In this document: piece after piece, positions 14,054 to 63,868 of the stretch | How positions within the stretch are numbered: position 1 is the first letter of the stretch | How the letters are laid out: each line of letters begins with the position of its first letter | Assembly (NCBI GenBank): GCA_964016885.1 | Contig: OZ024753.1 | Location: 23,002,001-23,066,000, forward strand | Direction of reading: 5' to 3' | Length of the DNA: 64,000 bases | DNA from: Eledone cirrhosa | Taxonomy: Eukaryota | The notes under the pieces: generated by a model | What the model was told of the DNA's origin: nothing | Databases searched by the model: none | Seen by the model: only the letters and a program-made list of their open reading frames with translations | Program-made: the position numbers and the translations under genes

Positions 14054-14312
14054 TGAAATATATGAAATATATGAAATATAAGAATCAAAGAACTGTTCAA
14101 AACATTATTGTGCTTACAGCTGTTTCCTCCAAACCGAGGTTTGGATTCTTCGGAGCAATTTATTAATGCATGGACAGTTATATGACCTCCTTTTCAGCCG
14201 AGAGACATACCAATACATATTCAAACATTGATACATATTCAAACATTGTGGGTCAACATTCATTACAAAATTTAGAGTGGCAGCACACACTTCGAGATTA
14301 CATTTATATTCC
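14054..14312 (-). mobile_element. PLE-a: short non-coding hammerhead-bearing fragment, probably a solo Penelope-like pLTR
   Basis: Unique island between two (TA)n arrays carrying a minimal hammerhead on the - strand; no coding sequence. Confidence 0.55.
14111..14157 (-). ncRNA. Minimal type-I hammerhead ribozyme, variant core (PLE-a)
   Basis: - strand: UGCU CCGAAGA a UCCAAACC uc GGUUUGGA g GAAA CAGCUG UA AGCA; the core reads CCGA instead of CUGA. Confidence 0.65.
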
Positions 14313-14891
14313 TATATATATTTATATATATATATATATATATTTATATATATATATATATATATTTATATATATATATATATATATTTATATATATATA
14401 TATATATATTTATATATATATATAAATATTTATATATATATATATATTTATATATATTTATATATATATATATATATATATATATAAATATATATATATA
14501 TATATATATATATATAAATATATATATATTTATATATATATATATATTTATATATATATATATATTTATATATATATATATATATATATATATATATAAA
14601 TATATATATATATATAAATATATATATATTTATATATTTATATATATTTATATATATATATATATTTATATATATATATATATATATATATATATATAAA
14701 TATATATATATTTATATATATATATATATTTATATATTTATATATATATATATATTTATATATATATATATATATATTTATATATATATATATATATATT
14801 TATATATATATATATATATATTTATATATATATATATATATATTTATATATATATATATATATATTTATATATATATATATATATATATAT
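14313..14891. repeat. (TA)n array with mostly TTTA interruptions
   Basis: Directly visible. Confidence 0.95.
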
Positions 14892-16120
14892 ACCACGGAA
14901 TGATATGTCACAGACTACACGGACTCGGCATAACTGGAAAAGTAGGTGAGTGGCTGCATGGCTTCCTGAGGGACAGAAGCCAGGCAGTCGCAGCAAATGG
15001 GGCTCTCTCGAGGGAAACACCGATAACAAGTGGGGTGCCTCAGGGGACAGTCCTGGGACCACTACTGTTTTTGGTGGCTCTCTCGGACATGCCCTCTGTG
15101 GTGCATGCAACAACATCCCTCACTAGCTATGCTGATGACACTAAGGTAGCACAGGCAATCAAAAACCCGGCTGACACTGCCCTCTTACAGCAGGATCTGG
15201 ATGCCATATACAGATGGGCGGAAGAAAACAACATGCAGTTTAATGCTGGCAAATTCCAAGCCCTACAATACAAACCTGCAAACACAAACACAAATATAGC
15301 GGAACACAGCTACACAGGACCAGGAGGGACCGATATCCCCGTGTCAAAATCGATACGAGACCTGGGCATAGACATGAGCGATGATGCATCTTTTTCTTCA
15401 CACATCATGAAGGTGGCGACAGCATGTAGACGATTCGCTGGCTGGATCTTGAGGACTTTCCTTACAAGAGATCGAGACACCATGTTGACACTGTGGAGGA
15501 CTTTTGTCCTAAGCCGCCTGGACTACTGCTCCCAGCTGTGGTCACCCCATAGTGTCAAACTAACCACAGAGCTTGAGGCAATCCAGCGAAGCTACACCAA
15601 GAGGATTGCCAAGATGAGGGAGACAAGCTACTGGGAGAGGCTGAAGGAACTGAACCTCTACTCCTTGGAGCGAAGACGGGAGAGATACGCAGTGATCTAC
15701 ATGTGGAAAATCCTGGAGGGACTAGCACCAAACTTTGGCATTGGGAGCTGGACCAACCGTCGAACAGGACGTCACTGTGTGGTGCCAAAGGTCCCGTCTT
15801 CCACATCTAGAATAAGGAGCAGGTATTGCAATAGCCTGGGATTCAAGGGCCCTCAACTCTTCAACAGGCTGCCGAGGCATCTGCGAGACTTGCATGACGT
15901 GGAGGTGGATGTCTTTAAGAAACATCTCGACACCTTGTTATCCAGGATCCCGGATGAGCCCACAGCAAGACACGAGGGAAACCTAAGGGCAGCAGCAACA
16001 AACTCCCTCCTACACCAGTGGCCAACCTATACAGGCTGGAGATAAAGTGTGTAGCAGCAAGGGCGGTGCCCCAGCATGGCCTCAGCCGGATGGCTGAAAC
16101 AGGTAAAAGAGTAAAAGAGA
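14892..16120 (+). mobile_element. 5'-truncated CR1/L2-group LINE inserted in (TA)n
   Basis: Starts mid-RT; 3' UTR has the hairpin TCAGCC-GGAT-GGCTGA and a (GTAAAAGA)2 tail; (TA)n on both sides. Confidence 0.85.
14900..16045 (+). pseudogene. Reverse transcriptase C-terminal part (5'-truncated, no internal stops)
   Basis: [45 protein letters not shown]. Confidence 0.88.
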
Positions 16121-16920
16121 ATATATATATATAAATATATATATATATATAAATATATATATATATAAATATATATATATATATAAATATATATATATAT
16201 ATATATATATATATATATATATATAAATATATATATATATATAAATATATATATATATAAATATATATATATATATAAATATATATATATATATATAAAT
16301 ATATATATATATATATAAATATATATATATATATAAATATATATATATATATAAATATATATATATATAAATATATAAATATATATATAAATATATATAT
16401 ATATATAAATATATATATATATATATATATATATATATATAAATATATATATATATATATATATATATATATATAAATATATATATATATATAAATATAT
16501 ATATAAATATATATATATATATATATATATATATATATATATATATAATATATATATATATATATATATATATAAATATATATAAATATATATATATATA
16601 TATATAAATATATATAAATATATATATATATATATATATATAAATATATATATATATAAATATATATATATATAAATATATATATATATATAAATATATA
16701 TATATATATATATAAATATATATATAAATATATATATATATATATATATATATAAATATATATATAAATATATATATATATATATATAAATATATATATA
16801 AATATATATATATATATATATAAATATATATATAAATATATATATATATATATATATATATAAATATATATATATATATATATATATATATATATATATA
16901 AATATATATAAATATATATA
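16121..16920. repeat. (TA)n array with TAAA interruptions
   Basis: Directly visible. Confidence 0.95.
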
Positions 16921-17513
16921 TATGTGTATGTATATATGTATATATATATGTGTATGTATGTATGTGTATGTGGATGTGTATGTATGCGTATGTGTGTACA
17001 CATGGACTAGAGTATGTATGTATATATGTGTGTGTCTATACGTGTGTATATATAAAGATAAGTTGAGTATGAAAATGTATACACATGAGCGCGTATGTAT
17101 GTACATGAATACATGTGTGTATATATATGTGTATGCATGTGTATATATATGTAAGTATGAATATGTGAATTGTGAGTATATGTATTTTGTAGAGGTGTGC
17201 AAATATATTTGTGTGTGAATGCGTGGGTGAAAGAATAAGTACACTTGAAAGAAAAATTTAAGTCTGAATGTTAAGTGCAAACACAAAACCAACCACGCAT
17301 ATCTTTACTATCTCTAATCCTTCTATAGATTTAGAAAAATAACCAATAATATATTCCATAAAAAATGTCAAAACAACAGATGGGAATCTAATTACTCACT
17401 GCCACCAAGAATTCTCACTGCTATCGAAAAACCACTCCTTCAACTATTCTTCTAACAACTTCACCCCTCCCTCCTAATATTCTCTATAAAAACTAAATAG
17501 GTCCTCAGTAATA

Positions 17514-61928: not shown

Positions 61929-62134
61929 TTTAGAAGCGTATGCTGAATTAGTTGCTCAACTGTATAGGAGATTAATAAAATTTCAGGTTATCAATAATGT
62001 AGTGATAATATATCGTTACGTTAGAGATGAACAGCGTACGTGCAGGTTTGCTCAACGAGTATAAATTATATTCCGGAGAAATGTAGAAAGGATGAATATA
62101 AAATGAAAGTGCTTTTGTTAAAAAAGGAATTTAT

Positions 62135-62256
62135 TAGGTATTGACATATGTTTCTGTAACAGACCGAATACCTATGTATCGCTGCTTGCGTAATCATATA
62201 ATGTTAGCAAGTATTCGATAGCAAATGTATAATCAGTTGTCACTTCTTCAGAGATT
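62135..62256 (-). ncRNA. Hammerhead-like motif (PLE-f upstream pLTR)
   Basis: Direct copy of 59020-59141 at offset 3115. Confidence 0.6.
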
Positions 62257-63024
62257 TTGGATAAACTGGATAAAATCAGAAAAGTTGAAGTATTTATATT
62301 AGTAAAAGAGGAAGGAACAGAGGGGATAGAATATGACAGATGGTAAAATAATTTACTGCTAAACAAGTATATAATGGGTTTTTAATGAGAATACCATGAG
62401 TAAATCTAAATAAGAATTTTGGGGGTGCCGATTTTAATCTCTACTTGACCAACTGGACAGTGGACAGGGCTGGTCATTTGGTGCAGTAGTATTAATCATA
62501 AAGTGTCAATTGGGGAAGGGGGAGATTTCGATTGCTACTAAATAACATCAATGCTAGTGGTCAGCTGGTATTTGCTCTAGGGAATTGAATCAAAAAATCA
62601 GAAATCTCATTTTATCTATAGCAGTTTGTATTAAAAGGTAAATAATAGAAGAGTTGATAGAATTAAGACTAATAAAGAATGTTCATATCTATTTTGACAA
62701 TCAAACGGGGATAGAGGCAGGCGTTCAATTCTGGTAGTATTTATAATACAACTGATTATACATTTGCTATCGAATACTTGCTAACATTATATGATTACGC
62801 AAGCAGCGATACATAGGTATTCGGTCTGTTACAGAAACATATGTCAATACCTAATAAATTCCTTTTTTAACAAAAGCACTTTCATTTTATATTCATCCTT
62901 TCTAAATATATATATATATATATAAATATATATAAATATATATATATATATAAATATATATAAATATATATATATATATATATATATATATATATATATA
63001 AATATATATATATATATATATATA

Positions 63025-63868
63025 TCATAACTCATGTCTATAGTATTAATCAGATATTAAAATATATACTATTTCTTCTTCTAATCAGCATAATCAACCA
63101 TATACATAATCAAATCCAGCAAGCTTTAAGAATAAATTTTCTAACGGGGAAATCTCCGACACATAACTGACCGCAGCTAGTTCGCGTTAACTCCGTTCAC
63201 CATTTATCAAACACTTCGGCAGCATGCAGAATCCGATCTAGCAGCATGCTTACCCGCCGTAAGCGACCAATCACACGCTTTCTCTCTGGCTGTTACACAG
63301 CTACATAGCGATCTTAGCCATTTTTTAATCTAAATTTGGCGCGGTCTGTCTGAGAAATTAAATGTCTATTTCTGAGTTTGTCTCCTGAAGATTCCTGACT
63401 CAAAGCATATCCATATTATTTGGATGTCCTAAACTAGGAAGAAACCATGGTAGAGATATAATTACGGTATGTGCGCATTTCTTCTAAGTTTAATTTTACT
63501 ACTAATTACGTGCGGTTGACGGTGTATTTGACCGGATTCTGCATGCTGCCGAAGTGTTTGATAAATGGGGACCGGAGTTAACGCGAACTAGCTGCGGTCA
63601 GTTATTTGTCGGAGATTTCCCCGTTAGAAAATTTATTCTTAAAGCTTGCTAGATTTGATTATGTATATGGTTGATTATGCTGATTAGAAGAAGAAATAGT
63701 ATATATTTTAATATCTGATTAATTCTATAGACATGAGTTATGATATAATGCTCTGATTTTTTTATTTTAATTTATTAATTCTTCATTGAGCTTAAAAGTG
63801 AACAGTTGCAACACATATATATATCCTTGATTTAATTTAATTTAATTTTATGTATGTGATAACCTCTA
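63025..63868 (+). mobile_element. PLE-g: non-coding hammerhead-bearing element with a ~214-bp inverted repeat
   Basis: 63025-63238 is the reverse complement of 63530-63743; hammerhead in the spacer; unique sequence continues to 63868, then (TA)n. Confidence 0.65.
63379..63458 (+). ncRNA. Type-I hammerhead ribozyme (PLE-g)
   Basis: UGUCUC CUGAAGA UUCCUG...AUAUCCA..UGGAUGU...UAGGAA GAAA CCAUGG UA GAGAUA. Confidence 0.85.

Follow-up and report, generated by a model that had tools for sequence, protein, structure and literature searches.

Introduction

Hammerhead ribozymes with a palindromic helix III, and their action as dimers, have already been described (PMC4209133; PMC3088659, legend of fig. 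S8; PMC7229834; PMC6765202; PMC6466107), and dimer activity has been reported for related motifs (PMC4209133, PMC7229834). In the double hammerhead, as drawn in the legend of fig. 1A of PMC4209133, each core takes the cleavage strand of its partner. Many of these ribozymes lie in the pseudo-long terminal repeats (pLTRs) of Penelope-like elements (PLEs), where their role is unsettled: they show little activity in vitro, and a reconstituted system can dispense with cleavage. Among PLEs with a C-terminal endonuclease, Craig et al. (PMC8557442) characterize the Hydra clade by RWK, DKT instead of DKG, CxCX5C, CxxC and CxH motifs, insertion at (TA)n and a hammerhead at the 3′ end, and their File S2 gives the same stem III for 5 of 14 Hydra-clade families of Hydra magnipapillata. 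Retrozymes have been presented as PLE derivatives (bioRxiv 10.64898/2026.07.22.740005). Outside ribozymes, the dimerisation initiation signal (DIS) in the human immunodeficiency virus type 1 (HIV-1) is a 6-nucleotide (nt) palindrome that biases partner choice between subtypes (PMC3187697).

Here we analysed a 64,000-nt stretch of the Eledone cirrhosa genome (assembly GCA_964016885.1, contig OZ024753.1, positions 23,002,001 to 23,066,000 of the forward strand; "the window", numbered from its first nucleotide), which carries hammerhead motifs of seven families, each named here after the six letters of its helix III. A sequence-only reading of this DNA had proposed that the hexamer serves as a family barcode, so that a ribozyme is activated only by a second pLTR of its own family. 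We found that self-pairing of the hexamer is what is maintained and that pairing between two copies is likely the selected trait. A role of the hexamer as a family barcode is not supported, because many young families share the same six letters.

Results

Helix III is maintained as a self-pairing sequence

Scanning both strands of the window for GAAA-[6-nt palindrome]-TH gave 24 sites, 17 of which have a hammerhead core upstream (200 dinucleotide shuffles gave 0.075 on average and never more than 2). The other seven are one core-less truncated CATATG copy (62834) and six unrelated sites. The 17 motifs belong to the families CAGCTG (1), CACGTG (3), TATATA (2), TGCGCA (3), CGATCG (5), CATATG (2) and CCATGG (1). 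All seven hexamers were found where the sequence-only reading had placed them, two of them on the - strand (CAGCTG at 14117 and CATATG at 59030). The short helix III/loop 3 is self-complementary in 17 of 17 motifs, and the core CUGANGA...GAAA...UH, which the sequence-only reading had proposed as a search motif, is canonical in 16; the remaining one, of the CAGCTG family, is CCGAAGA (U4C).

Four disjoint patterns searched in the whole 3.0-Gb assembly gave 77,134, 40,405, 13,660 and 5,990 matches (controls: 163, 7,364, 81 and 918), or about 128,000 hammerhead motifs net. For closer analysis we sampled the window and 329 loci (designated L), reduced to 275 non-redundant stretches totalling 1.84 Mb, with 20 loci added later. 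These loci were picked by hexamer class and lie almost all within the first 133 Mb of contig C1; hexamers beginning with A or G were covered by one search pattern and bystander matches only. A strict motif rule matched 447 times in this sample before de-duplication, against 1 match in the reversed sequence, and a relaxed rule 603 times against 17.

Searches that ignored the hexamer revealed which variants are propagated. For the CAGCTG clade (4,624 matches, control 0), hand counts of the first 100 matches listed gave CAGCTG 39, CAATTG 35, CAGTTG 23, CAACTG 0 and other 3; for the TATATA clade (38,454 matches, control 1), the first 100 listed were TATATA 48, TATGTA 49, TACGTA 1, TACATA 0 and other 2, likewise counted by hand. 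The central pair is therefore G-C, G·U or A-U in 39, 23 and 35 of 100 in the former and U-A or U·G in 48 and 49 in the latter, with neither A×C nor C×A. Across families, TATGTA made up 43 of the first 100 TAYRTA rows, which extrapolates to about 33,000 copies, and TACATA 36 of the first 100 of 1,660 TACRTA rows, which extrapolates to about 600, as scattered singles. The G·U and A×C variants of a palindrome are strand-mirror mutations and are expected at equal frequency under decay. We tested RNA editing or other strand-biased mutation as the source of the wobble excess and saw no sign of it, as neither A>G nor C>T is in excess on the sense strand of the elements (25 vs 25 and 36 vs 31; 33 vs 33 and 41 vs 30). 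A DNA-level palindrome, such as a protein-binding site, was rejected, since only the G·U form, and not its reverse complement, is propagated.

The same picture emerged from 282 six-base motifs called regardless of their hexamer, at loci chosen by hexamer-class patterns and leaving out those from a single asymmetric pattern: 205 are palindromes, 60 wobble forms and 17 mismatched, so that 265 of 282 are self-complementary. Five family-level wobble forms recur in at least two loci, against one mismatch form (tandem U·U). In addition, compensatory double changes separate relatives (CGATCG/CAATTG/CGGCCG; CACGTG/CATATG/CAATTG/CGTACG; TATATA/TGATCA) and supplement the small number of independent wobble origins. 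Self-pairing of the hexamer is thus maintained at all three positions, with G·U allowed and A×C not propagated, and the identity of the hexamer shifts by compensatory steps between sister families.

The central two bases of the hexamer are unable to pair within one hairpin, and the monomer A-hexamer-U hairpin is predicted to be unstable (+2.4 to +4.7 kcal/mol). For these two reasons, pairing between two molecules is likely to be the trait under selection. For the wobble hexamers, predicted pairing with either neighbouring palindrome equals or exceeds self-pairing.

Six-letter palindromes are not the only form of helix III in this genome, and the earlier statement that every hammerhead has one holds for the window only. 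Elsewhere there are the wobble hexamers TATGTA, CAGTTG and CATGTG as well as 4-, 7- and 8-nt forms: CTAG (4 nt), CCTCTGG and CCACTGG (7 nt) and CTAATTAG (8 nt), observed in L214, L289, L069, L215 and L046. A Neptune-like family with a Cys/His-rich endonuclease (L237:3572-4252 (-), and others) has a non-palindromic 4-nt helix III, GAAC or GGAC.

Young families share hexamers

Families were clustered with the hexamer masked and counted as young when copies at different loci were within 2.5% of each other; one cluster was divided into CAGCTG and CAGTTG on clade evidence from the 3′ untranslated region (UTR). The 29 young six-base families use just 12 hexamers. The sequence-only reading had named sharing at the chance rate as a refutation of the barcode; sharing is commoner than chance, with 42 identical pairs of 406 against 6.3 expected from 64 palindromes, and 9 of 105 against 1.6 after collapse to 15 lineages. 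Because loci were selected by hexamer class and families have ancestors in common, these counts are biased, and a few clusters hold stray nested neighbours. The existence of sharing does not hinge on these biases. In an internal endonuclease tree of 23 rows, in which 7 of 20 forks are open, CAATTG marks six rows from five lineages, placed in no fewer than four distinct regions; two of the CAATTG rows are long branches.

Families compatible in helix I tend to remain compatible in helix III: helix I is compatible in 40 family pairs, 25 of which are also compatible in helix III, against a permutation mean of 7.7. Among neighbours of different families within 6 kb, 9 of 154 are compatible on the same strand and 10 of 152 on opposite strands, which is no depletion.

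Each family in the window keeps a single hexamer, and the hexamers of all seven differ, as had been read from the sequence. Seven distinct hexamers drawn from 64 are within chance (P = 0.71), a caveat that the sequence-only reading had itself raised. Predicted self-pairing of the window hexamers beats cross-pairing by 1.6 kcal/mol (TATATA) up to about 8. Helix I separates every pair of these seven families except TATATA and TGCGCA, which the hexamer alone separates. Outside the window, the hexamer is mostly constant when families are defined tightly (3′ UTR about 90% identical), and sharing between families is extensive. CAGCTG copies fall into one clade and CAGTTG copies into another, with about 14% between the two and medians within them of 1.7% and 5.3% (15 of 68 copies were long enough). 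Family specificity, if any, has likely arisen as a side effect of the joint divergence of helices I and III, and there may be a weak displacement of hexamers between the very youngest sisters.

The motifs lie at the ends of Hydra-clade elements and in a retrozyme-like repeat

Judged by their proteins and repeat structure, six of the window families represent ends of Hydra-clade PLEs, and the CCATGG family represents a retrozyme-like tandem repeat. Six of the seven families are linked to an upstream endonuclease, the CGATCG family by position and repeat extent. The clearest case is the CATATG family, of which the window holds a young Hydra-clade element with an open frame of 781 amino acids (aa) at 59610..61955 (-). 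This single open reading frame (ORF) encodes a reverse transcriptase (RT) followed by a C-terminal GIY-YIG domain (YRDD at 359, YVGST at 673) and stands between two same-strand hammerheads spaced by 3115 nt, one in the upstream pLTR (62143..62251 (-)) and one in the downstream pLTR (59028..59136 (-)). Because its RWK, DKT, CxCX5C, CxxC and CxH motifs match the features given by Craig et al., we assign this frame to the Hydra clade. The family is young: it has 59 scored matches, most of them 95-100% identical and many with an open frame. An inverted, 5′-truncated end of the same family lies at 62748..62904 (+) and is without the CUGAAGA half of the core.

Relatives in the sampled loci tie other motifs to the same kind of protein, namely CAGCTG (L211, 832 aa), TGCGCA (L215, 775 aa), TATATA (L329) and CACGTG (L217). 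The four element proteins compared are 39-48% identical to one another, and all four have the CxCX5C linker, CxxC and CxH. RWK and ADKT were found in the CATATG family and RWR and ADKT in the CAGCTG family; in the TGCGCA family, SDKT is present and the frame examined had no match to RWK/RWR, and the N-terminal frame of the CGATCG family has RWR and SDKT. No CCHH was seen when the translations were inspected by eye, and Pfam gave no score to the Hydra-clade proteins, the 781-aa frame included. In 167 of 340 motifs, the cleavage site is followed within 120 nt by a (TA)n tract, at a median distance of 50 nt.

The single CAGCTG motif (14115..14153 (-); 20-nt helix II region, 4-base-pair (bp) helix I) is part of a solo 3′ fragment (14068-14310) that is 98% identical to the full-length element in L211. 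The CACGTG family is represented by motifs at 17519..17625 (+), with an 88-nt helix II region and a 5-bp helix I, 19911..20017 (-) and 22557..22663 (+), by a frameshifted RT region of a Hydra-clade element at 17753..19737 (-), 74% identical in nucleotides to the CATATG-family ORF, and by an endonuclease fragment at 21446-21898 (-). Two TATATA motifs, at 20781..20830 (-) and 20988..21037 (+), form the left and right arms of an inverted pair (20723-21095), and the + strand motif has no same-strand partner of its family within the window; an endonuclease fragment of this family lies at 24694..25055 (+). The TGCGCA family has motifs at 23020..23074 (+), 27118..27172 (+) and 29957..30010 (+) and an endonuclease fragment at 28669..28944 (+). 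The first of these motifs is cross-compatible in helix I with a TATATA motif that lies 2.0 kb upstream on the same strand. An assembly gap of 200 N (25925-26124) separates fragments of the TATATA and TGCGCA families.

The CGATCG family occupies an inverted repeat of 11.7 kb and 97% identity (30305-41914 vs 46656-58224; span 30305-58224) made of tandem elements. Its motifs are at 30378..30512 (-), with a 116-nt helix II region and a 10-bp helix I, 38331..38464 (-), 45055..45188 (-), 50126..50259 (+) and 58017..58151 (+), and its RT-endonuclease ORFs are interrupted (34403..36927 (-)) or frameshifted (42253..44746 (-) and 51633..54157 (+)).

The CCATGG motif (63385..63452 (+)) lies inside a non-coding retrozyme-like unit (63020-63825). 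In L219 this family forms non-coding head-to-tail arrays with a spacing of about 657 nt and one type I hammerhead per unit; this array (C1, about 92.98-93.02 Mb) has at least 35 copies. No match to the CCATGG unit was obtained in tblastn searches with the four element proteins. These features fit a non-LTR (long terminal repeat) retrozyme.

Elsewhere, several short copies of the TATATA/TATGTA clade (L253, L256, L283, L337) begin at one shared point about 80 nt upstream of the core, which suggests a short non-autonomous element. In 168 of 340 motifs, a polyadenylation-like AWTAAA follows the cleavage site by no more than 30 nt, against 15 in an upstream control stretch; it frequently overlaps helix I, and the elements end a median of 50 nt beyond the cleavage site. 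The window also contains a non-LTR retrotransposon at 1780-5185 (+), which we take to be Tx1/L1-like, with an apurinic/apyrimidinic (AP) endonuclease and an RT, disrupted by one stop and one frameshift, a minisatellite at 7998-8458 (74-bp unit, about six units), and the 3′ portion of a second non-LTR RT gene at 14900-16045 (+) with (TA)n tracts on either side.

Ribozyme architecture

Closure of helix II is predicted in all seven window families (-4.9 to -42 kcal/mol), with helix II regions of 20-116 nt, and helix I has 4-10 bp at the junction in six of them. The U4C core of the CAGCTG family is family-wide across the genome, in a clade of more than 3,000 copies; U4C is a known natural variant reported to lower activity (PMC3088659). 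In the CATATG family, the 3′ strand of helix I finds scarcely any pairing upstream of the core, and 8 nt within the 3′ side of helix II are complementary to it; a pseudoknot, a switch or a dead ribozyme is possible. The Rfam hammerhead models were neither among the 150 matches listed of 207 for the whole window nor found in focused scans of two motifs.

Discussion

The combination of covariation and element structure leads us to view these motifs as hammerheads of PLE terminal repeats, together with a retrozyme-like repeat, in which the hexamer likely pairs with that of a second copy and two copies would be needed to cut. We put the probability of this at roughly 0.7. The proposal that these are pLTR hammerheads whose helix III likely forms between two copies had already been part of the sequence-only reading, and covariation at the central pair now supports it. 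According to this model, a tandem pLTR-ORF-pLTR transcript, for instance the one that encloses the open frame at 62143-59028 (-), would form a double hammerhead and undergo cleavage at its two sites, the cleavage step being the inferred part. Since the merged helix III makes each core need the 3′ helix I strand of its partner, the partner must match in helices I and III. Solo ends, which are far more numerous, would stay silent, as would be the case for CAGCTG, CCATGG and each TATATA copy in the window. The hexamer would drift near-neutrally through G·U intermediates under selection for self-complementarity. Distant families would be unable to cross-activate as a by-product of divergence in helices I and III, without selection for difference, and close relatives would remain cross-compatible.

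Several observations weigh against this model. The CATATG family, very active and young, with ORF copies at 97-100%, has a junctional helix I of 1 bp, and in the CAGCTG clade the core has U4C, which is reported to lower activity; efficient cleavage is thus maybe not the selected trait. In the anole PLE, the sole one reconstituted, cleavage is described as dispensable for insertion and as protein-dependent (PMC11167929). Insertions run on for a median of 50 nt beyond the cleavage site, and the RNA that was copied had therefore not been cut at its last hammerhead. As to pairing itself, the replicated wobble forms perhaps represent only about 4-5 independent origins; the tandem U·U forms TGTTCA, CGTTCG and CATTTG occur twice each, TGTTCA in two loci of one family; and GAAC of the Neptune-like family is not palindromic.

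Three other explanations for the palindromes have to be weighed. The anole result, the insertions that pass the cleavage site and the broken helix I of the CATATG family raise the possibility that RNA-RNA pairing itself is selected rather than cleavage, the palindrome and helix I holding two pLTRs or transcripts for a dimeric RT-endonuclease, as in the HIV-1 DIS. The same selection for intermolecular pairing would apply here; the protein is a predicted dimer in the work in which cleavage was dispensable in vitro (PMC11167929), pairs of one family standing head to head are common, making up 72 of 100 adjacent outward pairs, and the CATATG family retains its palindrome. Against it, the core and helix II, not needed for pairing alone, are kept across lineages about 40% identical in protein, the two arms of an inverted pair are in most cases (71 of 76) at least as close to one another as to the nearest other copy, which fits a single source, and Naiad elements are described as thriving without canonical hammerheads (PMC8557442). 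We regard this explanation as rather unlikely. Action as a monomer, with the A-U pair, a single further pair and a tetraloop that the element's protein stabilises, and with palindromy incidental, would account for an outer pair that is strictly pyrimidine-purine like a monomer closing pair (C-G 140 and T-A 140 of 282), and protein-assisted cleavage of an RNA with a single motif has been reported (PMC11167929). However, the inner and central pairs covary too, the latter cannot form in a hairpin, and the predicted hairpin is unstable, which together make this very unlikely. A selected barcode, with co-active families driven apart so that nested neighbours cannot cross-activate, would agree with the mutual orthogonality predicted for the seven window hexamers in helix III, with the TATATA and TGCGCA families, which share helix I and differ in the hexamer only, and with the sister subfamilies CAGCTG, CAGTTG and CAATTG, in which the rest of the ribozyme is almost invariant. 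We give it hardly any credence in view of the excess of hexamer sharing among the young families, the enrichment of helix III compatibility among helix-I-compatible pairs, the undepleted same-strand neighbours and the ability of wobble forms to pair with both neighbouring palindromes; moreover, a single change in 6 nt is what neutrality predicts for subfamilies that differ by 14%.

One could also imagine a more speculative, and in our opinion improbable, scenario in which the palindrome and helix I constitute a two-key signal for partner selection, deciding which RNAs are paired in the dimeric RT-endonuclease and co-inserted head to head. Young sisters that share helix I (CAATTG/CAGTTG/CAGCTG; TATATA vs TGCGCA) would then escape each other or non-autonomous parasites via a G·U intermediate. 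Six outward pairs of different families have no (TA)5 between them (L015, L035, L056, L237, L267, L337). A chimeric head-to-head insertion was rejected for L015, which is a nested insertion, and for L035, which has a microsatellite-like junction, and a decayed copy lies between the arms in L056. At L267 (about 2339) and L337 (about 750), different hammerhead families meet head to head with no (TA)n between; co-insertion of two RNAs or nested insertion is possible. No convincing chimeric inverted insertion was thus found among the four loci examined in detail (L015, L035, L267, L337) and L056.

This genome offers natural evidence on the role of the hammerhead in PLEs: the centre of helix III, which cannot pair in a monomer, appears to be under selection for pairing, and this lends support to the dimer model in vivo. 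Natural swap series with near-identical ribozymes (CAGCTG/CAGTTG/CAATTG and TATATA/TATGTA/TGCGCA) are available here for the study of partner specificity. A barcode would have been surprising, and the data point the other way.

Comparison with known systems

As in the minimal, dimeric hammerheads described for PLEs (PMC4209133), the motifs have a type I core in pLTRs and a very short palindromic helix III, occur as many families per genome and mostly as solo copies, and are accommodated by a dimer model. Unlike the published ones, for which a helix II of 4-8 bp is given, they have helix II regions of up to 88-116 nt and include one U4C clade. The elements resemble the Hydra clade of PMC8557442 in RWK/RWR, DKT, CxCX5C, CxxC, CxH, (TA)n insertion, the hammerhead at the 3′ end and a stem III common to co-resident families. 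They differ from the published clade members in number (a single genome holds dozens of lineages and over 100,000 motifs) and in unit length (3.1-4.2 kb vs less than 3 kb). File S2 of that paper has mostly at least 7 nt between A15.1 and U16.1, and here there are mostly 6; the 7-nt CCTCTGG and CCACTGG forms resemble the published motifs.

The CCATGG family is similar to the non-LTR retrozymes described in PMC7229834, with non-coding head-to-tail units and one type I hammerhead each, and the axolotl retrozyme motif likewise has one pair and a palindromic tetraloop. Its unit of about 657 nt exceeds the 170-400 nt of PMC7229834 and is within the 51-972 bp of bioRxiv 10.64898/2026.07.22.740005.

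The HIV-1 DIS (PMC3187697) is the real precedent for the barcode idea, as it is also a six-base palindrome that varies by lineage and physically favours like partners. It differs in being a packaging kissing loop and not a ribozyme helix, and the hexamers here are common to many co-resident lineages. Co-active lineages with different palindromes that do not cross-pair, the feature of a DIS-like recognition code, were not found here, and the biasing of partner choice is an effect shown for the DIS. In the literature searched, we found no central-pair G·U series in these ribozymes, and no title or abstract concerned a family code or a wobble series in them. The dimer model itself is not new, and the motifs described here are real ribozyme motifs of a known kind in new families of the Hydra clade.

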